A stretch of 64,000 nt of DNA from a phage: the sequence record PV636258.1, one strand, 5' to 3'. Below, one piece after another: positions 3,093 to 47,484 of the stretch. The position numbers were made by a program, and so were the translations under genes. The stretch's first letter is position 1. Every line of letters begins with the position of its first letter. The notes below the pieces were generated by a model. That model did no database searches, was not told the origin of the DNA, and saw nothing but the letters and a program-made list of their open reading frames with translations.

Positions 3093-5369
3093 TCAAACAA
3101 CACAGGTGTCACAAATTTCTTCAACTTGTTTCAGCTCCTCGTCTTCCTTGGAGTCTTTGTTGGTGTTGTAATACAGAGTTTTACCACCCCACATGTAGAA
3201 AGACAGAATATCCTGCATCATAAGAGAGCGCGGGATCTTGCCTTCTGGATATTTCTCTGGGTCATACCATGTGTTGGTGCTGATGGATTGATCTACCCAA
3301 CGTTGTATGACCGCCGCCGTCTTCAGGTATTCAATACAATCCAGATTCCATTTCAGGTCATATAGAGGACCAAGGGTTTCTACATCCGGAACGATCTGTT
3401 TATAGACGCCGTCCTTGCTGCCTTTGATGCTGATGAGACCTTTTGGTGGCTCTATACCGTTCGTTGCGTTCAGCACCTGAGAGGAGCTTTCAGTTGGTGC
3501 TACGGCTAACAACGTGGCGTTACGGATCCCATACTCGGATAGGTTCTGCTTCAGACCTTCCCAGTCAAGACCATAGGCTTGCCCAACAGGCTTTTTGCCA
3601 TTGGGTAGGATGTCCAGCGGGAGAGGCTGAAGGTCGGCTGTTACAAATCCGGAATCATGGATAGTTGACTTCTTACAAGATCCGAAACGCATGGCCAGAC
3701 GGTTGGACGCTTTGACCAAGTAGAAATGAAGATGCGCCATCCACTTGTCTAGAAGTTCTAATCCGATAGGCGATCCATAACCCGTGAAATTCTTGGCCAG
3801 GAAATGTGCGACGTTGACGATACCGATACCCAGAGGACGATATTCTTCTACGGCCAAACGGGCTTGGCGAGCTGGATAGTCCTGATATTCCAACAACATA
3901 TCCAAAGCTGAAACCAGAACGAAAGCAACATCTTCCATTTCTGTTGGATCTTCAAATGCCGTCAGGTTAAATGATGCGAGTGTACATAGGGCAATGCGAC
4001 CATCTTCATCATCATACTGTTGGAACTCACGAGTCGGGAGCGCGATTTCTAAACATAGATTAGAGCTATAAATCGTGTCCAAATTGAACGGACTATACTC
4101 GTTCATGTGATCAACGAATGCGATGTAGATCCGGCCAGTGTCAGAACGCTGGTCTAGTAGCATTTGGAACACTTCTTCAGCTTGCAGCTTTTTGGAACGA
4201 CATAATCCGGCGTCGGCGGCCTTGATCATATTGTCGTACATTTCGCGGAATTTATTGACGTCTGCGAAAAATGCTTCATACATTTCGCGGTTGTCTTTTG
4301 GATCAAACAGGTATAGAGGCTGTTTGTTCACCAGGCGCTCGAACATGACGCGGTTAATCTGAATCCCATAGTCGATACGGCGTTCACGGTTCTCTTCCAA
4401 TCCACGGTTGTTTTTGAGAACAACGACATCATCAAATTGATAATGCCAGATGGGAACATAGCATGTTGCCGATCCACCACGGATACCGCCTTGAGAGCAA
4501 GACTTCAGGGCACCAGTCAAATACTTGATGAATGGAACCAGACCTGTATGGACCATTTCCCCTTTACGGATAGGGCTACCGATGCCACGAATTGCCCCAA
4601 CATCGAATCCGATGCCAGCACGTTTGGAAACATAATCCACGATGCTTTTCGCAGTGGCATTAATTGAGTCCAATGTATCACCAGTTTTGATCAATACACA
4701 AGAGCTGAACTGTCGGGTCGGGGTGCGGACGCCGGACATAATAGGTGTTGGAAGACTGAATTTGCCTGTACTGGCGTATTCATAGAACTTCTTCACCATT
4801 GTCAGTCTGCTTTCTTTATCCCACGCTGAGAATAATGCCATAGCGATTGCCATGTACATGACTTGAGGGGTTTCATAATACACTTTGCTGTCAGAAGAAC
4901 GATCACGCAAAAGATATTTTTGAGTCAGCTGGCCCATTGCTGCCCAAGTGAAATTCTTGTCGCGTTTGTGGTTGATGACTGTGTTAAGTTCTTCGAATTC
5001 TTCTTTAGAGTAAAGTTCGAGGAATTCGCGGTCATAAACACCCAGCTTGGTGTTCTTTGCAAAGATATCCAGCAAATGAGGTGGCTTGTATTGACCATAG
5101 ACAACCTTTCGCAGGTCATACGACTTCAGGCGGGCAGCAACATATTGATAATTGGGTTTATCAACAGAAATTAAGGTGGCCGCAGCTTGGATAATGATAT
5201 CCTGAATGCGTTCGGTTTTCATGTTATCGGTGAATTGAATCTTCGATGCAGCTTCCACCTCAGACACCGATACTCCTTCAAGGCCGTCACATGCTCGTTC
5301 AATAACGGTATGGAGTTTTTCAATGTCAAAGGGGACAGAAGATCCGTCCCGCTTTATGATGTTAATCAT
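3093..5369 (-). CDS. nrdA: ribonucleotide reductase class Ia alpha subunit
   Basis: Near-colinear with E. coli NrdA (ATP cone MINIIKRDGS..., SLPTPIMSGVRTPTRQFSSCVLI, NLCLEIALP); start moved to ATG 5369 with GAGGAT SD rather than track start 5420. Confidence 0.95.
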   Translation of the reverse strand: MINIIKRDGSSVPFDIEKLHTVIERACDGLEGVSVSEVEAASKIQFTDNMKTERIQDIIIQAAATLISVDKPNYQYVAARLKSYDLRKVVYGQYKPPHLLDIFAKNTKLGVYDREFLELYSKEEFEELNTVINHKRDKNFTWAAMGQLTQKYLLRDRSSDSKVYYETPQVMYMAIAMALFSAWDKESRLTMVKKFYEYASTGKFSLPTPIMSGVRTPTRQFSSCVLIKTGDTLDSINATAKSIVDYVSKRAGIGFDVGAIRGIGSPIRKGEMVHTGLVPFIKYLTGALKSCSQGGIRGGSATCYVPIWHYQFDDVVVLKNNRGLEENRERRIDYGIQINRVMFERLVNKQPLYLFDPKDNREMYEAFFADVNKFREMYDNMIKAADAGLCRSKKLQAEEVFQMLLDQRSDTGRIYIAFVDHMNEYSPFNLDTIYSSNLCLEIALPTREFQQYDDEDGRIALCTLASFNLTAFEDPTEMEDVAFVLVSALDMLLEYQDYPARQARLAVEEYRPLGIGIVNVAHFLAKNFTGYGSPIGLELLDKWMAHLHFYLVKASNRLAMRFGSCKKSTIHDSGFVTADLQPLPLDILPNGKKPVGQAYGLDWEGLKQNLSEYGIRNATLLAVAPTESSSQVLNATNGIEPPKGLISIKGSKDGVYKQIVPDVETLGPLYDLKWNLDCIEYLKTAAVIQRWVDQSISTNTWYDPEKYPEGKIPRSLMMQDILSFYMWGGKTLYYNTNKDSKEDEELKQVEEICDTCVV

Positions 5370-5453
5370 AGCGATCCTCGGTTTGTGTTTATGCAGGCTG
5401 TTATTATACACCGCCTCCATGGATTGAAGGCGGCGGGGAAGTTCGTGTGGTAT

Positions 5454-6293
5454 TTAAATGTTGTACAGGTCGTTAATTTCTAACATCAGGCGGGTGAAGT
5501 TGCCGCGACCATTACGATCAGACTTATCGAATTCGATGATGCTGAATGGTTGAACCCACTCTGGATATTCATCTCCGATTTCTACACCGTCAATTTGCAA
5601 GGAACCTGTTTCCAGCTTATTGTTGAAGTCTTTAAAGGAATCCACATACGTCTGTAACGCACTGTCACGCAGTCGCTTGTTAGACTGTTTGATATCTCCA
5701 TTCACGAAGATGTACGAAGAATCTGAAGCACGAGTCAACAAGTTTTTCAGCTGCTCCATATCACATTCCTGTGCTTCTTCAATAATCAGGAAACAATCAT
5801 CGAAAGTCATCCCCTTTACAGTTTCAAGGTCTTGAATTTCTATGATGCGTTTCTCCCACAGATAGTTGAAGAAACCGTCGGAACCCGTATCTGTTTTGAG
5901 AACCTTTTTAAATGTCTGTATGAGCGGCATCAAATAAGGCATCAGCTTTTCATATGTGTCACCAGGCCGGAACCCTGCTGTGGTACCAGTTGGAAGGGGA
6001 GAACGTGTGATGATGATCTTGTTGATTGTTTTGTCTATCAGATGTTTTGCTGCAGCAGATGCACCGCAATAGGATTTGCCTGTACCTGCCGGACCGATTG
6101 CGATAGTGAGGTGTTCGTTTAATGCGGATTGATATGCGAGGTTCTGATTTTCTGAGAGGCCATTGAACGGAGCAATTTTGAAATCACCTTTAGAAAATTT
6201 CATCCAGTCTTCTTCTTTCTGGATGGTGTCTTTCTTACGAGCAGATTTTGTCTTCGCTGGCTTCATGGATACAACTTTAGACGCAGATTGCAT
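5454..6293 (-). CDS. phoH: PhoH-like ATPase
   Basis: Walker A GPAGTGKS, PhoH-like layout; track start is GTG at 6329, ATG 6293 with AGGAAGG SD preferred. Confidence 0.85.
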   Translation of the reverse strand: MQSASKVVSMKPAKTKSARKKDTIQKEEDWMKFSKGDFKIAPFNGLSENQNLAYQSALNEHLTIAIGPAGTGKSYCGASAAAKHLIDKTINKIIITRSPLPTGTTAGFRPGDTYEKLMPYLMPLIQTFKKVLKTDTGSDGFFNYLWEKRIIEIQDLETVKGMTFDDCFLIIEEAQECDMEQLKNLLTRASDSSYIFVNGDIKQSNKRLRDSALQTYVDSFKDFNNKLETGSLQIDGVEIGDEYPEWVQPFSIIEFDKSDRNGRGNFTRLMLEINDLYNI

Positions 6294-6370
6294 GTTGAAC
6301 CTTCCTATATCTACAGGGGTTGTCGACACCTTTAATTAAGCGACACGCCCAGCATACCTGTATATCAGAT

Positions 6371-6395
6371 AAAGAAAAAGGCCGTTTCCGGCCTT
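6371..6395 (-). terminator. rho-independent terminator after endolysin gene
   Basis: hairpin aaggccg/cggcctt followed by TTTTCTTT on the minus strand. Confidence 0.55.
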
Positions 6396-6400
6396 GAGAA

Positions 6401-7195
6401 TTAGCAGAAACTCTTGTATGCTGCCGCCAGTTTAGTATCATACTGGTTTTTCGCATATGCCGGACCATTGTACCGACGAGCAAACTCGGCCCAATTCTTG
6501 TTCTTCAGGGCTTTCCACATATTGGCATCTGCCTTGATGAACTTGACAAATGCCAGAAGGTGAGCGCGTTCACCAGTCAGGAAATCAGTGAACATCTCTT
6601 TGGCATTTGAATAGCCACAGATTTGGCAGTTGAACCCCATGATCTGGAATAGGCCGTAGGAAGCACTCTCGTAAGCGCAGTCCTCGTCAAGGGCGATTGC
6701 ACCCTGAAGGCGTTCCAACTCCGCGTCTCCGCCGATATACCCGCCAGAATTGGGGTTAACCAATGTTGGATAGAGTTGGTACAGAGCATTGGCTCTTGCT
6801 TGCCCGAATTTGGCCGTCACCTTTTTGTACATGATGTGGCGCTCAAACAGAGTTTTGATCTTGCCAGTTTTGGTAAAACCCGTGCCACGGGATTCTACCT
6901 GATTCACAGCTTTCATACTGGCCAGCTCAACACCAAGTTCACGTGCTGCGTCAACCAAGTCCGCTTCGGTCAGATGTTCCTGGTGAGCGTCTCCAGCGTT
7001 TCGGATAGCATAGAAGGTCTTTGGCCCAGCAATACCATCAATAACCAATCCAGCACCTGCCTGAACGGATTTGACAGCATTCTCTGTTGCCTTACCAAAT
7101 ATGCCATCGGCTGTAAGAGAGAAACCGATTTTGTTGAGGCTTTGTTGAAGTGCTTTGACTTCAGAACCTCGGTTGCCAAGTTTTAGAATGGCCAT
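6401..7195 (-). CDS. endolysin: N-terminal peptidoglycan-binding domain plus C-terminal muramidase-like (DUF3380-type) domain
   Basis: N-terminus LKLGNRGSEVKALQQSLNKIGF...DGIFGKATENAV matches PG_binding_1; C-terminal domain resembles phage N-acetylmuramidase family; GGAGGT SD before ATG 7195. Confidence 0.8.
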   Translation of the reverse strand: MAILKLGNRGSEVKALQQSLNKIGFSLTADGIFGKATENAVKSVQAGAGLVIDGIAGPKTFYAIRNAGDAHQEHLTEADLVDAARELGVELASMKAVNQVESRGTGFTKTGKIKTLFERHIMYKKVTAKFGQARANALYQLYPTLVNPNSGGYIGGDAELERLQGAIALDEDCAYESASYGLFQIMGFNCQICGYSNAKEMFTDFLTGERAHLLAFVKFIKADANMWKALKNKNWAEFARRYNGPAYAKNQYDTKLAAAYKSFC

Positions 7196-8526: not shown

Positions 8527-8736
8527 TTAGGTCGGCTTCTTTTTCAAATACTGGCGAGCCAAATCCATTTGTTCTTCAGTGATAGGACAACCGCCGAAGT
8601 CCACCATTCCATTCCTCCAACCATGGATGAAACTCTTAGATTCTAAGCCAGATAGGACATATCCTTCACGGGCTTGCATATACCCGCGAAGAATCTCTTC
8701 ATCGTCCATACTATTCAGTTCTTTCAAATCCATCAT
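8527..8736 (-). CDS. hypothetical protein (69 aa)
   Basis: ATG 8736, ATGA overlap with primase stop. Confidence 0.5.
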   Translation of the reverse strand: MMDLKELNSMDDEEILRGYMQAREGYVLSGLESKSFIHGWRNGMVDFGGCPITEEQMDLARQYLKKKPT

Positions 8737-9797
8737 ATCTTCCTCAAGTCAGAAAATCGTAAGGACGCCGACAGTCCCTGATATACGTTCTTGGCCATGA
8801 TCTGAAGCAGATCACGTATCGGGATATTTCCCTTGTCGGGGCGAACCATATCATTGATATCCTTCCACGGTATTTCCGGTGGAAACAGAACGACTTTGAC
8901 TCCGCTGTCTATCATCTTCTGTATACCGTCACAAACTTGTTTGTTCCTGTATTGGTTATCGGGGATATAGATGTCCCCCTTAGCACTTAATAAGTCGGCA
9001 TCGGCAGTCGCAAGACAATTAGGTAGAAACAAGCTATCAATTGGACCTTCTACTACCAACTTTGTTTTGTTCCAAATGATGCGCTCTTCCCCGTAAATCT
9101 TAGTGTCTTCGTTCTTAGGCTTGACAGTGGCATACCGTAATACCCCATCAGGAAGGTTATCGCCGAATGCGCGCCCCTGAACTATCTTCATGCGCCCGTC
9201 TTGGGTCCAGAATGGGATTACCAGCCGCTCATCTTCGGGTATCTTCTTCTGCTTCTCAACATCCGTTTCGAAACTCAGAAGATCTTGACGAAAATTTCTG
9301 CTGTAATATAACAAAGATAACGTGCTCTCCGGCATTCCCCTGCCTTCAACATAACGACGGGCGATATGATCACGGTCAAGAAGATCAAGGCGTATCATAT
9401 TCCCAAGGTGCTCTTCATCCCGTTTGGCGACCCGAGAACCGATACGTGCTGTCTGGGTCAGGCGCTGTAGTGGTTTGAGTTTTTGTAACGGGCGGGAACT
9501 GGTATCCCCCATGATTCTGAATTTTTCAAGGTTGTATTCATTATACAGACGCTCGTCAAACTTCTTCAACCAGAATTCAAACGCCCAACCGCTCATTTCA
9601 TTACAGTTGTGGCACTTGAAACGAAACACATCGTCATCACGATCATAAAAGAAGTGACCACGACGCTTGTTAGCACTCTTCTTAGAATCCCCACATAATG
9701 GGCAACGAAATTTGGCGACAGCGCCAACACGTTCCCAGCTGAATTTATCAAGTCGGGGGGCGAGAAAATTGATGTATTGTTCGTCAAGAAATTTCAT
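8733..9797 (-). CDS. 61: DNA primase (T4 gp61-like)
   Basis: N-terminal zinc ribbon CPLCGDSKKS...CHNC followed by TOPRIM-like region with EGPIDSL acidic motif; size 354 aa as T4 gp61. Confidence 0.85.
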   Translation of the reverse strand: MKFLDEQYINFLAPRLDKFSWERVGAVAKFRCPLCGDSKKSANKRRGHFFYDRDDDVFRFKCHNCNEMSGWAFEFWLKKFDERLYNEYNLEKFRIMGDTSSRPLQKLKPLQRLTQTARIGSRVAKRDEEHLGNMIRLDLLDRDHIARRYVEGRGMPESTLSLLYYSRNFRQDLLSFETDVEKQKKIPEDERLVIPFWTQDGRMKIVQGRAFGDNLPDGVLRYATVKPKNEDTKIYGEERIIWNKTKLVVEGPIDSLFLPNCLATADADLLSAKGDIYIPDNQYRNKQVCDGIQKMIDSGVKVVLFPPEIPWKDINDMVRPDKGNIPIRDLLQIMAKNVYQGLSASLRFSDLRKI

Positions 9798-10069
9798 TTA
9801 CCCCACCCGGTCCGGAAAAGGATAGATTTATATTCTTCTACCATGTTCTGGTCATAATGCGTAAGACGAGAATATGCTTTGGCTTCATAACTGTCAGCCC
9901 CAAGTTCAGTCGCCGCCATGGCCGCTTTCATGTTCAATGTGTTTTCATATCTGGATTCCATACCATGGGTTTCCAAATATTCTTTCGCCTGTACAAATCG
10001 GCGCTCACTCGCAAACAAGAAGTCATAATTTATTTCTGAAAATTCTTTGTTGTATGCTGCTAATGACAT
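9794..10069 (-). CDS. hypothetical protein (91 aa)
   Basis: ATG 10069 with AGAGGTG SD; track start 10114 would overlap upstream gene. Confidence 0.5.
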   Translation of the reverse strand: MSLAAYNKEFSEINYDFLFASERRFVQAKEYLETHGMESRYENTLNMKAAMAATELGADSYEAKAYSRLTHYDQNMVEEYKSILFRTGWGK

Positions 10070-10079
10070 AGTACACCTC

Positions 10080-10697
10080 TTAAATCGCGGGCCTCTGGAA
10101 CACTTCTGACACATTATAATCCACCCCGCGACTTTGAGCTATGCAAAGCTGTCTCCATGCACCATATAGAATATTCTGCTCTGCGACTTGATTGCGTTCA
10201 AAGTGGGCGAATTCTTCCAGCATCTGTTTGTACCCCAATAGATAAGGAGGGATATCTGTAGGTCTTCTTTTGCCCAAAGATTTAGACAAATATGATGCAT
10301 AATGTTCCGGTGAAGACAAAGATGAATATTGCATATTTGGAACGTGAACGGGCTTCAAAGATTTTCTAGGGGTGAAGTACAACAAACCCCACTTGGGAGG
10401 GAGGTCTTCAATTTTAATAACATCTGCTGGGCAAACATAGAAACGATATGCTCCCATGCCTATGGAAGGATTCATGCGATGAGGTTTCTTTTTGTCTGTC
10501 AGGAAGTCGGCGCGGGAGACTTTAACTTCCATTAATATAGAACAACCCCCAGGTCTGAACCCGATGGCGTCAGGGGATTCACGATTATCGAATGAATTTG
10601 GTTCTACGAACACAGCACCACAATTCATTTGTTTGTGTAGAAATTTTGCAGCGATTTGACAACCTTCTGAGTGAGAAGGTATAAAGATTTTGCCCAT
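10080..10697 (-). CDS. PD-(D/E)xK-type nuclease-like protein (205 aa)
   Basis: D...EVK arrangement (DAIGF...ILMEVKV) typical of restriction-endonuclease-fold nucleases; assignment by motif only. Confidence 0.5.
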   Translation of the reverse strand: MGKIFIPSHSEGCQIAAKFLHKQMNCGAVFVEPNSFDNRESPDAIGFRPGGCSILMEVKVSRADFLTDKKKPHRMNPSIGMGAYRFYVCPADVIKIEDLPPKWGLLYFTPRKSLKPVHVPNMQYSSLSSPEHYASYLSKSLGKRRPTDIPPYLLGYKQMLEEFAHFERNQVAEQNILYGAWRQLCIAQSRGVDYNVSEVFQRPAI

Positions 10698-10760: not shown

Positions 10761-11114
10761 TTAGGACAGTTGCTTCAGTTTGTAAATCGTTTGATAGCAC
10801 AGAGTCTTGATTTCGTCAAGCGTATTTTGTAAATGGCTATCACACTGATTGTAGATCCCATTAACGTCGATGATCACGCTGTTGATATACGATATCGGTT
10901 CAGGATTGTACAATTTGATGTTCTCGAATCCTGGAATGTATATACCTCCCGCACCAATATACGCTTCCGTAAAGGTGTCCAGCAAGTCCTCCAGTTCCCC
11001 GTAGAACTCCCCGAGTGCCTTGTGCTTGGCATAGGACGTTGTAACGAAGTGGAGGGCATGAGAGTGGGCTATAGCAAGCAGTCCACGGTTGATGAATATA
11101 CTCGCGTTAACCAT
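10761..11114 (-). CDS. hypothetical protein (117 aa), late-promoter context
   Basis: ATG 11114 with GAGGAA SD; CTAAATAC box 31 nt upstream. Confidence 0.55.
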   Translation of the reverse strand: MVNASIFINRGLLAIAHSHALHFVTTSYAKHKALGEFYGELEDLLDTFTEAYIGAGGIYIPGFENIKLYNPEPISYINSVIIDVNGIYNQCDSHLQNTLDEIKTLCYQTIYKLKQLS

Positions 11115-11128
11115 GATTGTTTCCTCAG

Positions 11129-11158
11129 AAAAAGAAATCCCCCTGTATTTAGGGGGAT
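11129..11158 (-). terminator. hairpin terminator containing CTAAATAC box
   Basis: stem atccccc/gggggat followed by TTCTTTTTCT on minus strand. Confidence 0.5.
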
Positions 11159-11163
11159 TGTCA

Positions 11164-29517: not shown

Positions 29518-29967
29518 TCAGTATCGACTATCACTGACCGTTCTGTATCGCACACCCTGAAACTGTTTAGCGAGTTTAACAAATTCCATCGCTGGCAAAT
29601 CAACTTTGTAGACCTTCATGCGCTGTTTGCCGTCCATGTTCAACGCAGCGACAAATCGGTGAGAACCGTCAACAACGTAATTGTCAGAAGACACCCAAAC
29701 TCGACCCATGGGCTTCTTATTTCTGATCTGCTTCATAATCTTCCAGACCTTCATTTTATTGATTTCGTTCTGGGTAAGACGAAGCATTTTGATAGGCACT
29801 TGCGCAGCATCTATAGACACGCCGTTGTCTTCAAGATATTTGTGAAAATCTTCTTGTTTGTCGGCATCGATTTGCGGCATCGAAGAACGAGAAAGCCCGA
29901 GGTTCCCAACAGGAATCCTCAGGCCATTTATGATATTCATCCAGTCAATAAAGGATGTAAGGAACAT
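29518..29967 (-). CDS. ParB/sulfiredoxin-like nuclease-domain protein
   Basis: YVVDGSHRFVAAL motif resembling ParB N-terminal DGHHR box. Confidence 0.5.
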   Translation of the reverse strand: MFLTSFIDWMNIINGLRIPVGNLGLSRSSMPQIDADKQEDFHKYLEDNGVSIDAAQVPIKMLRLTQNEINKMKVWKIMKQIRNKKPMGRVWVSSDNYVVDGSHRFVAALNMDGKQRMKVYKVDLPAMEFVKLAKQFQGVRYRTVSDSRY

Positions 29968-31264: not shown

Positions 31265-31582
31265 TTACTTGCGCAGGGCAACGACGAGTTCAGCTAACTC
31301 TCCGAGGGTAGGATCATCTCCATGTTTACCCACCCACTCGTCACTAATTTCTACATCGTACTCTTCTTCGATTTCCATGACCAGCTCAATCATGTCAAGA
31401 TCGTCACCGCCGAGATCATTCTTAACCCGTAACGGCGCTAAAGCATCGATATTATCATCAATGTTATCAAACTTGTCCTTGTGATCCCCGTTGCGCCAAG
31501 TTTCCATGTTCAGGTTGTCACAAGCGTACTGAGCCAGAACACGCATTACTTCAACATAAGTTGGTTTGTTTGACATAAGCAT
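31265..31582 (-). CDS. acyl-carrier-protein-like protein with Asp in place of the phosphopantetheine-attachment Ser
   Basis: DLGGDDLDMIELVMEIEEEYDVEISDE aligns with ACP helix II ([27 protein letters not shown]); codons GAC GAT CTT GAC verified on the DNA. Confidence 0.7.
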   Translation of the reverse strand: MLMSNKPTYVEVMRVLAQYACDNLNMETWRNGDHKDKFDNIDDNIDALAPLRVKNDLGGDDLDMIELVMEIEEEYDVEISDEWVGKHGDDPTLGELAELVVALRK

Positions 31583-31619: not shown

Positions 31620-33836
31620 TTAGATTTTGACTTCTTTTTCAGCCAGTTCGGCAGTGACGGTGTATTTCACCCCATCAACTTCCACATCCATAGTGGATTC
31701 TTCCAAATCCAGGTCGGTAAACCAACCATGGCCTGCAACAATCCCATAAACTACCTTGGACAGCGTTTTGTTCAGGGCGCGGACTTCGTTGATAGCTGCT
31801 TTTGCTGCGTCTCCGATCCAACTTTCGATCAGCTTTTTCTGAGTCTCTTCCGGTACGCTGGTGATCATCGGTGATTTAACGAATGCATTGTATTCAGCCA
31901 GGGCATTAGCGATCAGCTGATCAGCGACATTCAGTTTTTTACCGTCCGTCTGTTTTTTGATAACAGACGCGATGCTCGGCAGTGAAGATGCGCCTTTGAT
32001 TTTCACATTCAATTCACGACTCATATAGACATCGGTTGATTCTACAGAAGAAGTCTTCGGTGAAAATCCATAGTCGCGAATGCCGTTTGCTGACAGGAAA
32101 TCAGCCGCTTCTTTGCCATATTTTGAAGCCAGACCAGTAGCGTTGCCTTTGCCAACCAGTTCATCACGGTAGAATTTCAGAACTTTCTGTTTTGCCTTCA
32201 ATGCTTCACGGCGCACATTGTCTGCAAAGAATTCAGCAGCACTGATATTCTTTGTCATGGCGCGGTTAACCATTGGGACACTTTCCAGATTTACAATGAA
32301 GACTTCCGGCCCACCAAACACATGAACACCCATGGCAGTCAAATCCTGTGCCACCTTAGCCCGAACAATCGGAGAATCTGCAGTGATAGGCATTGTTTTC
32401 AGGTTGATGATACCATCCTTGACAATAGTGTAATTACGATAACGCCAGGTTCCCAGCTCTTCAGGAAGTTCATATTTCTTCTGTACAAACTCAGGCACAA
32501 CAACCGTTCCGTGTTGAACTGTCTGCACACTGATGTTAGGACGTTCTGAATTATAGACCAAATTGCTGATCGGGACAATCCCTTTATCATCTGCTGGATT
32601 GAATTCGGGGGTCCAATCTTCGTGCTCGGCCAGTTTGAGCGCCAGGGCTTTACGCTCTTCTTTAGAAGTCGCATTCGCAATCTCTTCGGCCAACTTGTCT
32701 TCGGTGTCATCAACTTTCTGTACAGTACCGCGCCCAATGCTCTTGTAAGAGAATAGCGGATGCTTGGTGACGATAGAGACATCTGCTTCAGCCAGATACG
32801 TCAGAACATCAACAATGGTGGTGGCGTCTTCAGCCGGAACCATATTATAATCGATGCCATCAACTCCTCGCAGAGATTCGTCTACGATAGCCTGAGTCAG
32901 ATCGACTTTGATGTTGGAATAGTCCTGCTTGGTGAAACAGTTGCTGTATTGTTTGATGAAGCGGACGTCACCCGTCTTCTTCAGCGCGGCCCAGACCAAA
33001 TCGGCGTCCATGGTGTACACGCCATAGAATGCCAGCACGTATGCCGCCTGGGTGTCTGCCAGATTATCCAGCTGGTCGATCATGTTGGGGTTTACAACCC
33101 ACAGCTGAGAAACGCTTTCAGGGATGCTGACGTGGCCAATAGGGTGCTCTTCATCAGGATGCACGGCTAAAACAGTCGCCACACCATTTTCAACATAAAT
33201 GGCATGGGTGTAAACCAGGGGAACATCGACCACCACTTTCGGTGAAGAAGTTTTCAGCACGTTTTCCAATTCGGTCTGATATTCATTCTGGCCTTCGGCG
33301 AATACGTGGGTCGCACCAGAACGTTCTGCCATTAGCCCCAGCAGTTCGCGATTACAATACCAACCGTATTCGATGAAGGTAATGTTATCAAACGCTTTGG
33401 GCAGTACTTCAGCGGCATCCAGGATTTCATTAGAACGCCAGCAGTTGTCATATCCGTCGGTCATGAATGCCAGGTTATTAACATAACCAGGTTTATTCAG
33501 GCTAATGGCAGTTTCCGCAGCCAATTTCAGCGGCTCAACAAAACCAGTACAACCAGAAGGCTTCAGGAAACGGTCAATTAGATTATTGATCTCACTGAGA
33601 TCAGTTGCACTGTTAATCTGACGTCCGGCAAATACCGTTCCGAAATCACCGCGAGATGAAAAGTAAAGGATGCTCACAGTATCTTCCGGTTTCACCAGGG
33701 AAGGCAGGTTCTCCTTCAGATGCTTACGGACTTCTGGAAGTGAACGATACATGGAACCGGAGATATCCACAACGATTACATGGTTAGACGGCGCGACGGT
33801 CGCAACCGCATTCTTAAATGTTAATGATTCAATCAT
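31620..33836 (-). CDS. von Willebrand factor A-domain protein (738 aa)
   Basis: N-terminal vWA with MIDAS DISGS (VIVVDISGSM); long C-terminal region unassigned; ATG 33836 preferred to track start 33974 (TTG). Confidence 0.75.
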   Translation of the reverse strand: MIESLTFKNAVATVAPSNHVIVVDISGSMYRSLPEVRKHLKENLPSLVKPEDTVSILYFSSRGDFGTVFAGRQINSATDLSEINNLIDRFLKPSGCTGFVEPLKLAAETAISLNKPGYVNNLAFMTDGYDNCWRSNEILDAAEVLPKAFDNITFIEYGWYCNRELLGLMAERSGATHVFAEGQNEYQTELENVLKTSSPKVVVDVPLVYTHAIYVENGVATVLAVHPDEEHPIGHVSIPESVSQLWVVNPNMIDQLDNLADTQAAYVLAFYGVYTMDADLVWAALKKTGDVRFIKQYSNCFTKQDYSNIKVDLTQAIVDESLRGVDGIDYNMVPAEDATTIVDVLTYLAEADVSIVTKHPLFSYKSIGRGTVQKVDDTEDKLAEEIANATSKEERKALALKLAEHEDWTPEFNPADDKGIVPISNLVYNSERPNISVQTVQHGTVVVPEFVQKKYELPEELGTWRYRNYTIVKDGIINLKTMPITADSPIVRAKVAQDLTAMGVHVFGGPEVFIVNLESVPMVNRAMTKNISAAEFFADNVRREALKAKQKVLKFYRDELVGKGNATGLASKYGKEAADFLSANGIRDYGFSPKTSSVESTDVYMSRELNVKIKGASSLPSIASVIKKQTDGKKLNVADQLIANALAEYNAFVKSPMITSVPEETQKKLIESWIGDAAKAAINEVRALNKTLSKVVYGIVAGHGWFTDLDLEESTMDVEVDGVKYTVTAELAEKEVKI

Positions 33837-34155: not shown

Positions 34156-35028
34156 TTATTTAAAGGAGTCTACAATGGATTTGAAAATATAATCTTTGGA
34201 GCGTTGTTGTACCGGGAGTTCTCCATACGGAACCATGCAAGGGTGTTGCTTGGTCTGAGGGTCTTTGACTGGGCCATACACCCATCCCTCAGCCTCCTTC
34301 TCCGCCATCCAGCTCTCATGCGATTCGCTGGGCTTACGATCACCAGTGAGATGGAAGATAACACCTTTGCAAGCGCTCTCACGCTGCCAGGCCGGAGATT
34401 GTTCCCAAGGCAGTTGAGAGTCGTCACCAACAGACTTGCAGTATGCGCGGTTGGCTTCATGACAAATCTTGGCGATGCGCAGAACCAATGGCGAATAAGT
34501 GAGATTGAGTTTGGAGTTGGCGCGCAGGAAATCACTAACAGCCTTACGAGATTTGGCGTTGTGAGAGTCAACAACAAGTTCCATGTCATCCGGCCCACAA
34601 ACGAAAGACGCCAAGAAGCGCTCGCCATTTTCCGCTCTGAACATCACGTCCTGAATCATCACATTGAAGCCGAGGTGATAGGCCGGGCAGAGGGCGCTAC
34701 GTTCAACAGCGTATTGATCGATCCGGATCTCTGCCGTTTCCGTGGCTTTGGCCAACAGATCTTGTTCAACAAGCGCCCGGTACGCCTCCAGCTGCCACAG
34801 CTGGTCGAAGGTGTTATTGTAGGAAATCTCTTTGCCCAGGGCTTCATCGAAGTTGGCCGGGTCTATGGATGTGCTGGGCTTGGTGCCGTGAACGACGAAG
34901 CCGTTATCCATCTTGAAATGACAAGTGATAGCCCGGTGACCGCCGACTTCGCGGTCTTCGTAAATCACCTCAGCGATATGTGACTTCAGGACTTCAGGAG
35001 TGAGTTTGATGCCAGTACGAGTTGTCAT
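34156..35028 (-). CDS. RyR-domain protein (290 aa)
   Basis: C-terminal HESWMAEKEAEGWVYGPVKDPQTKQHPCMVPYGELP matches ryanodine-receptor (RyR) domain signature; AGGAT SD. Confidence 0.65.
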   Translation of the reverse strand: MTTRTGIKLTPEVLKSHIAEVIYEDREVGGHRAITCHFKMDNGFVVHGTKPSTSIDPANFDEALGKEISYNNTFDQLWQLEAYRALVEQDLLAKATETAEIRIDQYAVERSALCPAYHLGFNVMIQDVMFRAENGERFLASFVCGPDDMELVVDSHNAKSRKAVSDFLRANSKLNLTYSPLVLRIAKICHEANRAYCKSVGDDSQLPWEQSPAWQRESACKGVIFHLTGDRKPSESHESWMAEKEAEGWVYGPVKDPQTKQHPCMVPYGELPVQQRSKDYIFKSIVDSFK

Positions 35029-44753: not shown

Positions 44754-46253
44754 TTAGAGCGCCACTTTTTTCATTTTAACAGGGTGGCGCTCCATAAGAT
44801 AAAATTTATATCTCTCATGAGAATGCCTGAGAGCATGGTTGTAGGAACCGTTGTAGCGCAGGTTGTCTACCAGGTCCCAGATTCGCGCAACATCCTTAGA
44901 GGAATGCTGACGCATCAAACGCCCCAATGTCTGTATAACACGGATATAAGATTTGCTGGGATGGGCCAATATCAGATGATGGAGTTTTTTGATAGATACG
45001 CCCTGTTGCATAGTACCATATGATGCTAACAGTGTTATATCTTCCCCTTCTTCCATAGCAGCCTGAATCTGTTTACGAACTTCTGTCTTGACTTCCCCGT
45101 TGATGACGAATACGTTTTTCTTGACTGCCGATAGCATTTCATAAACCAACATCATGTGTGCATCGATACGTTCGAACATTACTGCGACGTTCCCTTTCAA
45201 AGATAGAGCCATTCGGGCTATCAATTCATTGCGGCGTTCGTTAGCAATGAGGAATTCTATTTCCTTTTGATACTCAGCACCGTGCATTTCAATACAGTCT
45301 GCCATAGGATGTATGACTTCAATCATATTAACATTGATGTCCGCCGCATATCCTAGATCGATTAAATCGCGCGCTGTAATAATTTTATGATATGCACCAA
45401 AGTGAGCAACGACTTGTAACCCTGCGACCTTTGTATTCGCCAGGGTTCCGGTTACTCCCAAACGTTGATCAGCGTTAATACAGTTGTTCAAGATGTAAGA
45501 CAATTTATCTGATTTTGATGTATGTACTTCGTCGACGACGATATCTCCAAATTGATGGAACCACTCTTTGGGTTGGTTCTGGATACCTTGCCAAGTTGAA
45601 ATAACTATGGGTTTGAAAATCTCTTTCGTTGCCCCTTCGTATATTGTCTGGACGTTCATCAATGGCTTCCATTCTGTCCCGTGGCTATATTCTTCGAAGT
45701 TGTCATACAACTGAGTCACCAAATGAATGGATGGTACAACGATTAACGTTCTCAGATTACTTTCGAGGGCATCTCTGCGTTGCCTGTAGTAACGAGCCAT
45801 GATGTACAAAATAAAGGATTTGCCGGCACTCGTGGCAGCTTCGAGGACACATCTGCTTTGGCGTATTGCTGTGGAAACAGAATCAAATTGATAATCGCGG
45901 ACAATCGCTTTTTGATATTGTTTGTTTTCGTCTCGGTACACCGCATTCAATGTATCGATGAACGCATGAATTTCTTCATCCGGAATATCTTGAATATATT
46001 TTAAGGCCGGATCTAATTTGATGGTGTAACCGTTCATCTTACAGAATTTGAACACCTCAAATAACAGGCCGATGTCGATAAGCCCAGAACTCTTTGTGAA
46101 CAGCCGCACTACGCCGTCCCATTTACTGAACGGATTCGGTTGGAAATTAGGATCTTCAAATTTGAAGTAATCGTTGAGTTCTTCACGGATATAATCCTCG
46201 GCGAGGATCCGCATTCTAACTTCGTTCACTTTGACTATTTGGATCTCAGACAT
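44754..46253 (-). CDS. uvsW: UvsW-like DNA/RNA helicase
   Basis: colinear with T4 UvsW (TSAGKS, DEVH, SGEV..E.R, LHHLILAH, QTLGR); CTAAATAC box 26 nt upstream of ATG 46253. Confidence 0.9.
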   Translation of the reverse strand: MSEIQIVKVNEVRMRILAEDYIREELNDYFKFEDPNFQPNPFSKWDGVVRLFTKSSGLIDIGLLFEVFKFCKMNGYTIKLDPALKYIQDIPDEEIHAFIDTLNAVYRDENKQYQKAIVRDYQFDSVSTAIRQSRCVLEAATSAGKSFILYIMARYYRQRRDALESNLRTLIVVPSIHLVTQLYDNFEEYSHGTEWKPLMNVQTIYEGATKEIFKPIVISTWQGIQNQPKEWFHQFGDIVVDEVHTSKSDKLSYILNNCINADQRLGVTGTLANTKVAGLQVVAHFGAYHKIITARDLIDLGYAADINVNMIEVIHPMADCIEMHGAEYQKEIEFLIANERRNELIARMALSLKGNVAVMFERIDAHMMLVYEMLSAVKKNVFVINGEVKTEVRKQIQAAMEEGEDITLLASYGTMQQGVSIKKLHHLILAHPSKSYIRVIQTLGRLMRQHSSKDVARIWDLVDNLRYNGSYNHALRHSHERYKFYLMERHPVKMKKVAL

Positions 46254-46279
46254 CACTAATTTCCCCCAATATTATGGAG

Positions 46280-46286
46280 TATTTAG
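46280..46286 (-). promoter_or_regulatory. late-promoter-like box CTAAATA upstream of uvsW
   Basis: minus strand cgCTAAATACtcc overlapping stop of upstream gene. Confidence 0.45.
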
Positions 46287-47029
46287 CGATCCGCCCAGAT
46301 TCCTTTCTGTTCTTTATCCATTTTGTGATACAGACGGACACGGTCAAACATTTTAGAAATAACGTCTTTGCGATCGAATTCGATTATGGTGGGAACAAGG
46401 GCATTTTCGTTGGATATAATATTGATTAAACGCTCTATCTTGACATTAAACATTTGTTGAAACATGACTGAGTATAGACACAATTGAATACTATAATCTT
46501 CTATCATGCTTCGAGTTTTTAGGGTGTTAGATGTTTTGAAATCGATTATGCTTGGAATTCCTTCGTAAACCCCGATGAGGTCAACACGACCAGCAAGACC
46601 CAGGACTTCGCTATATAATGGAATCTCTTGTGCATATATCTTGCTCATTTTGTTAAGGTAGGGGAAAACCTGTTTGAACATAAACACGTATTCCCCTGCA
46701 GCTTCCAGAACTTCCTTCATTGGTCTGTTTTTGAGATACAACTCACAAGCCAAATGAAGTTTTTCCCCACGGTCTGCGCAACGATGTGTTTCTATATCAG
46801 CAGCTTCATGCCCCAACTTGTCCCGCCAGGCTTCTAACCATGTATGGTCACCAGTACGCCCTAACATGGTCGTCACTGAAGTTAGTTTGACTCCAGTGGG
46901 AGAAACATAGTGACGACCATTTTCGGTAGTTACGCAAGTCAGTTCCTTAAACGGCAAGGAATATTGCTGAAATGTATGATGACGATTTTCAAAGTCATTA
47001 AGTTTGCGCAAAGCCTGTAGAGAAACCAT
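46283..47029 (-). CDS. RecB-family PD-(D/E)xK nuclease-like protein
   Basis: GRVDLIGVYEG...IIDFKTS matches D / E.K-type RecB nuclease motifs; TAATG coupling with upstream gene. Confidence 0.55.
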   Translation of the reverse strand: MVSLQALRKLNDFENRHHTFQQYSLPFKELTCVTTENGRHYVSPTGVKLTSVTTMLGRTGDHTWLEAWRDKLGHEAADIETHRCADRGEKLHLACELYLKNRPMKEVLEAAGEYVFMFKQVFPYLNKMSKIYAQEIPLYSEVLGLAGRVDLIGVYEGIPSIIDFKTSNTLKTRSMIEDYSIQLCLYSVMFQQMFNVKIERLINIISNENALVPTIIEFDRKDVISKMFDRVRLYHKMDKEQKGIWADR

Positions 47030-47484
47030 TACATCCCATCCAAATATTTTCGCCAATCAATAGCATTCTTCACTTCATATCCGAGTTTGTTCAAACGATC
47101 TAAGCAACTTTCGATGAACTTGACTTTGGCTTTCTGCTCTTGAAGCATGCTAGACAATTCGATATAATCATCATCTGCTTTTACCCATACGTCTATATCA
47201 GATTTCAGGGGTCGAACTTTTAATGGGCGTTCAACATAAACGTTGGGCGGCAATTCCCCTGCATAAAATCGGCGTAAATAGAGATCTATTTGGCGGAATT
47301 TGCCAGTTAGATACTCCAGATATCTTCCTTCACGAATATAATGGCGTTGCACAGTCATCCACGAACGACCAATTTTCAATGACATTTGGTCTAAGTTCAT
47401 GTCTTCAGGATTTACCGAAATAAGAGGTTCCAATTCTACCATTATATCTTCGGTTTTCATCGTTTCAAGTTTTGTTTCGCTCAT
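47029..47484 (-). CDS. possible UvsY-like recombination mediator (151 aa)
   Basis: weak resemblance to T4 UvsY (LRRFYAGE vs LDYYSG) and proximity to uvsW; AGGGAA SD. Confidence 0.4.
   Translation of the reverse strand: MSETKLETMKTEDIMVELEPLISVNPEDMNLDQMSLKIGRSWMTVQRHYIREGRYLEYLTGKFRQIDLYLRRFYAGELPPNVYVERPLKVRPLKSDIDVWVKADDDYIELSSMLQEQKAKVKFIESCLDRLNKLGYEVKNAIDWRKYLDGM

Follow-up and report, generated by a model that had tools for sequence, protein, structure and literature searches.

Which of the small nuclease-like genes of a phage encode nucleases, and in which processes could their products take part? The question is raised by three open reading frames (ORFs) in a 64,000-nucleotide stretch of phage DNA (record PV636258.1; the whole of this stretch is referred to here as the window), which we designate ORF A, ORF B, and ORF C (Table 1). 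An initial annotation had described ORFs A and B as PD-(D/E)xK-type genes, the latter RecB-like and located beside uvsW, and ORF C as an ORF with a ParB-like nuclease domain, and had suggested that they may participate in recombination-dependent replication, host DNA degradation, or anti-defense. We find that they are three unrelated small DNA-metabolism genes, each within an already recognized fold family. The two PD-(D/E)xK assignments hold in both coordinates and fold. On balance, we lean toward a joint reading in which ORF A is a replication or recombination endonuclease, ORF B is an MGME1-like exonuclease, and ORF C is a nucleotide-binding protein with a ParB/sulfiredoxin fold.

The window has 100% identity to Salmonella phage Chennai (MN953776.1; Kuttervirus, Ackermannviridae), with window position 9000 corresponding to position 94266 of that record. 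The three ORFs are located on the minus strand at the coordinates given in the initial annotation and coincide with the deposited coding sequences chennai_134, chennai_180, and chennai_159, all of which are labeled "hypothetical protein". They are real genes, because each has many homologues in which the motif residues are invariant. Searches with family hidden Markov models detected no second copies of any of the three families in the window and 149 kb of the phage genome (the Chennai genome was searched over record positions 1–149266, which include the window).

A predicted nuclease related to MmcB

ORF A consists of a nuclease core with the restriction-endonuclease-like alpha-beta-beta-beta-alpha-beta fold and a helical C-terminal part. 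The core contains a textbook PD...ExK catalytic center, where P42-D43 opens the strand formed by residues 44–48 and E57-V-K59 closes the strand formed by residues 52–58, and this center is followed by the motif S-R-x-D-F-x-x-D. In an alignment of 27 relatives, with sequence identity down to 36%, the residues H9, E32, E40, P42, D43, E57, K59, R62, D64, and D68 are invariant, as are K71, R74, G80, G82, R85, W103-G-L105, and E173. Among 59 divergent representatives of the family, E40, D43, K59, D64, F65, D68, K71, R74, and R85 are invariant, and E57 and R62 are present in at least 90% of the sequences. The signature ExKxSRxDFxxD aligns to the MmcB-like reference structure 3DNX (SPO1766), and the closest structural relative of ORF A is a member of a repair-nuclease family.

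On its own, ORF A has no match in Pfam (E ≤ 1), NCBIfam, or PADLOC (0 families at E ≤ 1), and a single-sequence search of the PDB returned only noise. Among the PHROGs it belongs to phrog_631, a group of unknown function (E = 1.4e-81), with weaker matches that include a "DNA repair protein" PHROG. ORF A lies below the gathering threshold of PF06319, the MmcB-like (DUF1052) family, to which weak matches were found for 3 of the 27 relatives and 5 of the 59 (best E = 1.9e-4, and 1e-3 for the five matches in the divergent set). Because these matches are few and weak, we regard the ORF A family as a sister group in the MmcB clan and not as a member of PF06319. Four of the 59 divergent relatives reach Hjc, also weakly; ORF A itself has no significant match to PF01870 and Hjc is not its closest fold, which sets it apart from the Hjc-type Holliday junction resolvases. 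ORF A is predicted to be a stand-alone metal-dependent PD-(D/E)xK DNA endonuclease whose family is sister to the MmcB-like (DUF1052) repair nucleases.

Several features distinguish ORF A from the MmcB-like/DUF1052 proteins (PF06319; 3DNX; Caulobacter MmcB). The invariant residues E40 and P42 are specific to the ORF A family, the helical C-terminal part is longer in ORF A, and the carriers of ORF A are mostly phages and plasmids whereas those of the MmcB-like proteins are alphaproteobacterial chromosomes. Caulobacter MmcB is described as a PD-(D/E)XK endonuclease that protects against mitomycin C, and a repair role has been proposed for it (PMC9578287); SOS control and involvement in mitomycin C or cross-link repair are known for this protein alone (PMC9578287). 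We found no account of phage MmcB-like proteins in the literature, and a review of Ackermannviridae makes no mention of the ORF A, B, or C genes.

The ORF A family is very large. A profile search against 1.84 billion cluster representatives yielded 6971 clusters at E ≤ 1e-3 and 1125 clusters at E ≤ 1e-30. Relatives were found in 648 phage records, with full-length copies in Ackermannviridae and with matches restricted to the N-terminal half (the nuclease core) in Stx, Vibrio, Klebsiella, and Acinetobacter phages, and the family was detected in 848 plasmids when a distant relative was used as the query. Temperate phages, P1-like phage-plasmids, conjugative plasmids, and bacterial chromosomes also carry relatives, and two distant ones occur in a phage-like context and in a context resembling a plasmid or an integrative and conjugative element, respectively. 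The family is present across many bacterial phyla, where its contexts are mostly prophage-like, together with a chromosomal group in Terriglobia (Acidobacteriota). In Terriglobia, the gene (locus ~5001..5490) follows a gene for a 683-amino-acid protein with CHAD and HD (Ppx/GppA domain III) domains at nine loci, and recR is nearby in three of them. This arrangement suggests that the Terriglobia copies represent a form of the family that serves in housekeeping repair. Since the family extends over phages, plasmids, and prophages and almost completely escapes Pfam and NCBIfam, a single biochemical study would allow thousands of genes to be annotated.

In RefSeq, the plasmid relatives of ORF A carry the name "adenylosuccinate synthase", for example in the Citrobacter phage-plasmid NZ_CP114569.1 (locus 6001..6684). 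The label is apparently a mis-annotation of a PD-(D/E)xK nuclease that has spread from record to record.

Genomic neighborhood and possible role of ORF A

In the window, ORF A is followed in the same direction by the small gene chennai_133 and by a gene for a gp61-like DNA primase. Eighteen related loci, mostly from Ackermannviridae and including Vibrio phage D531 (40% identity), were compared: in 17 of them ORF A is immediately followed by the primase gene, in most cases without a gap, and chennai_133 has no match in any of the 18. The stop codon of ORF A in phage SPTD1 overlaps the start codon of the primase as TAATG, an overlap that is usual for this gene pair, and ORF A is probably translationally coupled to the primase in related phages. 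The junction between the two genes looks like an insertion hot spot, as it is occupied by chennai_133 in the window and contains an insert of about 150 nucleotides at one locus and of about 650 nucleotides at two loci in other phages; in two phages the annotation that underlies the match to ORF A includes a homing endonuclease, which would fit the insert of about 650 nucleotides. The DUF5856 gene on the other side of ORF A is conserved in Kuttervirus-like loci.

The neighborhood of ORF A relatives was also surveyed in 51 viral loci from outside the Ackermannviridae, where the 197 neighbors form 143 clusters with a loose enrichment of DNA methyltransferases and replication/recombination genes. 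DNA methyltransferases (six clusters), replication protein O, DnaB, SSB, NinB, and RusA are found among these neighbors. In Stx2 phage 1717 the relative is located in the early leftward (pL) operon after ea22, and the relative in a P1-like phage-plasmid is placed behind rdgC and a Dam-family methyltransferase. The notion that the ORF A family forms part of a two-gene system was considered and rejected, as there is no obligate partner among the neighbors.

The adjacency to the primase, the TAATG overlap, the replication/recombination and methyltransferase neighbors elsewhere, and the proximity of recR to the Terriglobia copies all support a role of ORF A in replication or recombination. ORF A would be produced together with the gp61-like primase and, by analogy with the repair role proposed for Caulobacter MmcB, could cut replication or recombination intermediates such as stalled or damaged forks and branched DNA. 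These observations lead us to a tentative and more specific proposal, which in its full form we consider unlikely: ORF A would be a primase-coupled structure-specific endonuclease that serves the Ackermannviridae at stalled forks and branched intermediates, possibly standing in for T4 endonuclease VII, and would belong to a family of ~7000 clusters at 50% identity that is essentially outside Pfam. No T4 endonuclease VII (gp49)-like ORF was found in 149 kb of the genome, a weak negative as the query was a single sequence, and no Holliday-junction resolvase is annotated in the Chennai genome. The fixed place of ORF A beside the primase makes the proposal a concrete and testable hypothesis.

It is also conceivable that ORF A serves in host takeover, as a nuclease that breaks down unmodified host DNA but leaves the hypermodified DNA of the phage intact, like T4 endonucleases II and IV. 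The DNA of Ackermannviridae contains 5-NeOmdU, a modification that makes DNA resistant to many nucleases in vitro (PMC11721090), and both this modification and the intact nuclease center of ORF A are compatible with such a scenario. However, the same core occurs in temperate Stx phages, P1-like phage-plasmids, conjugative plasmids, and Terriglobia chromosomes, which would not destroy host DNA, and the affiliation of the closest structural relative with a repair-nuclease family also argues against it, so that we regard this scenario as quite improbable. As for the broader suggestion of a role in host DNA degradation, we found no support for it for any of the three ORFs.

Another scenario portrays ORF A as an accessory nuclease that mobile elements use in counter-defense or in competition with other elements. 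Relatives in accessory early regions (next to ea22 in the Stx phage pL operon, and adjoining DNA methyltransferase genes in phage-plasmids and in other phages), the number of plasmids that carry them, and their highly variable neighborhood could be interpreted in this way. On the other hand, no PADLOC model matched and we found no literature on such a role, ORF A is conserved in Ackermannviridae at a fixed position beside the primase and outside variable islands, and the chromosomal copies in Terriglobia are located near recR, all of which makes this scenario rather hard to accept. The anti-defense role suggested initially likewise found no support, as ORFs A and C have no PADLOC match and those of ORF B, to Cas4-type models, are weak and below threshold; neither a defense nor an anti-defense role is indicated for ORFs A, B, and C. 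Finally, the possibility that ORF A is a phage Holliday-junction resolvase or debranching enzyme that replaces T4 endonuclease VII before packaging would be in line with the failure to find a gp49-like ORF (with a single query sequence), but it is very doubtful given the weak similarity to Hjc and the presence of RusA or NinB next to some ORF A relatives.

A terminator-like hairpin (AATCCCCC-TAAATACA-GGGGGATT, followed by a T-run; 11136..11159, minus strand) is located just upstream of the block formed by the DUF5856 gene, ORF A, and the primase. The loop of this hairpin holds the sequence CTAAATA, which is annotated as "Kuttervirus late gene promoter" in the SPTD1 record; a promoter motif within a terminator hairpin is an odd arrangement.

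A predicted MGME1-like exonuclease between uvsW and uvsY

ORF B matches the Pfam family PDDEXK_1 (PF12705) with 29.9 bits against a cutoff of 22, and PHROG 298, an exonuclease group, with E = 6e-86. The residues H92, E96, D150, D163, K165, Q182, and Y186 are invariant in its family and constitute the full RecB motif set (hH..E, GxhD, (D/E)xK, and QxxxY). Nearly all of the more than 2000 homologues that were detected contain PF12705, and some of the homologues are already named "genome maintenance exonuclease 1". The ORF B family profile matches human MGME1 (8xa9/5zyu) with E = 6.8e-18, profile positions 43–236 being aligned with chain residues 35–242, which is nearly end to end and with all RecB motifs present; the match of the single ORF B sequence to MGME1 reaches only E = 0.02. 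A tblastn search with the human MGME1 core matched 489 phage genomes, mainly T4-like cyanophages and Pelagibacter phages, with E values down to 4e-11, and the matches in T4-like cyanophages are annotated "exonuclease". Based on the 489 matched genomes, MGME1-like exonucleases are a common phage gene. Judged from these similarities, ORF B is predicted to be an MGME1-like exonuclease of the RecB type. The link between ORF B and human MGME1 is clear, yet it is already reflected in automated annotations.

Unlike MGME1, ORF B is a phage gene with uvsW and uvsY as its neighbors. The stop codon of uvsY and the start codon of ORF B overlap as TAATG; the annotated start, which the initial annotation also used, is the ATG at 47029, and in the mechanical ORF list the frame opens with a TTG (position 47056). 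ORF B may act in recombination-dependent replication by trimming single-stranded ends and flaps of DNA, an activity that would fit its position between the two genes. More generally, a role in replication or recombination, as suggested initially, is plausible for ORFs A and B on the basis of gene context, with ORF A abutting the primase in related phages and ORF B flanked by uvsW and uvsY.

Cas4 was evaluated as a different identity for ORF B, whose DxK and QxxxY motifs fall in regions that weakly match Cas4 models. This candidate was rejected: ORF B reaches 34.5 bits with TIGR00372, for which the cutoff is 65, its family has no invariant cysteine and consequently no four-cysteine iron–sulfur cluster, and a CRISPR context is lacking.

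A ParB/sulfiredoxin-fold protein, probably without nuclease activity

ORF C matches ParB-N/Srx structures in fold. The structures nearest to it are for the most part CTP/ATP-binding proteins or kinases; close matches include sulfiredoxin, two serine kinases (SbnI and SerK), and PadC and KorB, which are ParB-like and bind CTP. The segments L-T-Q-N-E (residues 64–68) and D-G-S-H-R (residues 100–104) are invariant, and the latter, which is retained across 21 sequences, represents a phosphate-binding motif of the (D)GxHR type. ORF C belongs to PHROG 2859 (unknown function; E = 3e-45), and "ParB-like" PHROGs are matched only with E = 1.5e-3 and 8.7e-3. No significant Pfam match, to a ParB family or otherwise, was obtained for ORF C and 20 relatives, among which the matches to ParBc_2 (E = 0.081) and ddrB-ParB (E = 0.073) are at noise level, and ORF C has no PADLOC family at E ≤ 1. 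In comparison with the ParB/sulfiredoxin superfamily (ParB N-terminal domain, Srx, SerK/SbnI, PadC, and KorB), ORF C lacks a helix-turn-helix or dimerization domain and consists of a single domain with a conserved N-terminal PVGNLGLSRSSMPQI segment; unlike ParB, it has no partition context. The genes around ORF C give no clue to its function.

ORF C is probably not a nuclease. It might bind or hydrolyze a nucleotide, acting as a CTP/ATP switch or a phosphotransferase, rather than cut DNA. The ParB-like fold named in the initial annotation stands; the nuclease activity traces solely to the historical Pfam name "ParB-like nuclease domain". That ORF C is a true DNA nuclease, as this name implies, seems improbable to us in view of its close structural matches (sulfiredoxin, SbnI, SerK, PadC, and KorB) and of the fact that no Pfam ParB family matched significantly. 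ORF C therefore serves as a caution that the label "ParB-like nuclease" is no evidence of nuclease activity. Profile searches, which had been proposed as a check on the nuclease folds, bear them out for ORF A (via the family profile) and for ORF B, and do not do so for ORF C.

Annotation of the window and other genes

ORFs A, B, and C are previously unannotated members of known fold families, and their assignment fills annotation gaps in an ordinary way. The main gain is one of annotation, as three "hypothetical" Kuttervirus genes can be named by their fold and likely activity. Kuttervirus phages are being considered for the biocontrol of Salmonella and E. coli.

Table 1. Positions of the three ORFs, their motifs, and their neighbors in the window (aa, amino acids).
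Feature	Position	Strand	Basis
ORF A (chennai_134), 205 aa, predicted MmcB-like PD-(D/E)xK nuclease	10080..10697	-	
ORF A nuclease core, residues 1-118	10344..10697	-	
ORF A C-terminal part, helical	residues 119-205	-	
ORF A active-site stretch E40-S-P42-D43 ... E57-V-K59-V-S-R62-A-D64-F65-L-T-D68	10494..10580	-	read from sequence
gp61-like DNA primase, downstream of ORF A, same direction	8733..9797	-	PHROG 47 DNA primase E 1.7e-78; annotation
chennai_133, 91 aa, function unknown, between ORF A and primase	9794..10069	-	PHROG 22447
DUF5856 protein, upstream neighbor of ORF A	10761..11114	-	Pfam DUF5856 E 1.7e-28
ORF B (chennai_180), 248 aa, predicted RecB-type PD-(D/E)xK exonuclease, MGME1-like family	46283..47029	-	Pfam, PHROG, family profile
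ORF B RecB-type motifs G88..H92..E96, G147-R-V-D150, D163-F-K165, Q182..Y186	46472..46768	-	invariant columns, family alignment
UvsW-like helicase, immediately downstream of ORF B	44754..46256	-	Pfam ResIII, DEAD, UvsW_N, Helicase_C
UvsY-like recombination mediator	47029..47484	-	Pfam UvsY E 4.7e-12
ORF C (chennai_159), 149 aa, ParB/sulfiredoxin-fold protein	29518..29967	-	
ORF C motif L64-T-Q66-N67-E68	29764..29778	-	
ORF C motif D100-G-S-H103-R104	29656..29670	-	

Two further loci in the window are of some interest. An ORF resembling acyl carrier proteins (PP-binding, E = 3.7e-7; 31265..31582, minus strand) adjoins a 738-amino-acid ORF with an N-terminal von Willebrand A domain (31620..33836, minus strand), here in a lytic phage. 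A 290-amino-acid protein (34156..35028, minus strand) combines a domain of the N4 gp49 / Sf6 gp66 family with a RyR domain.
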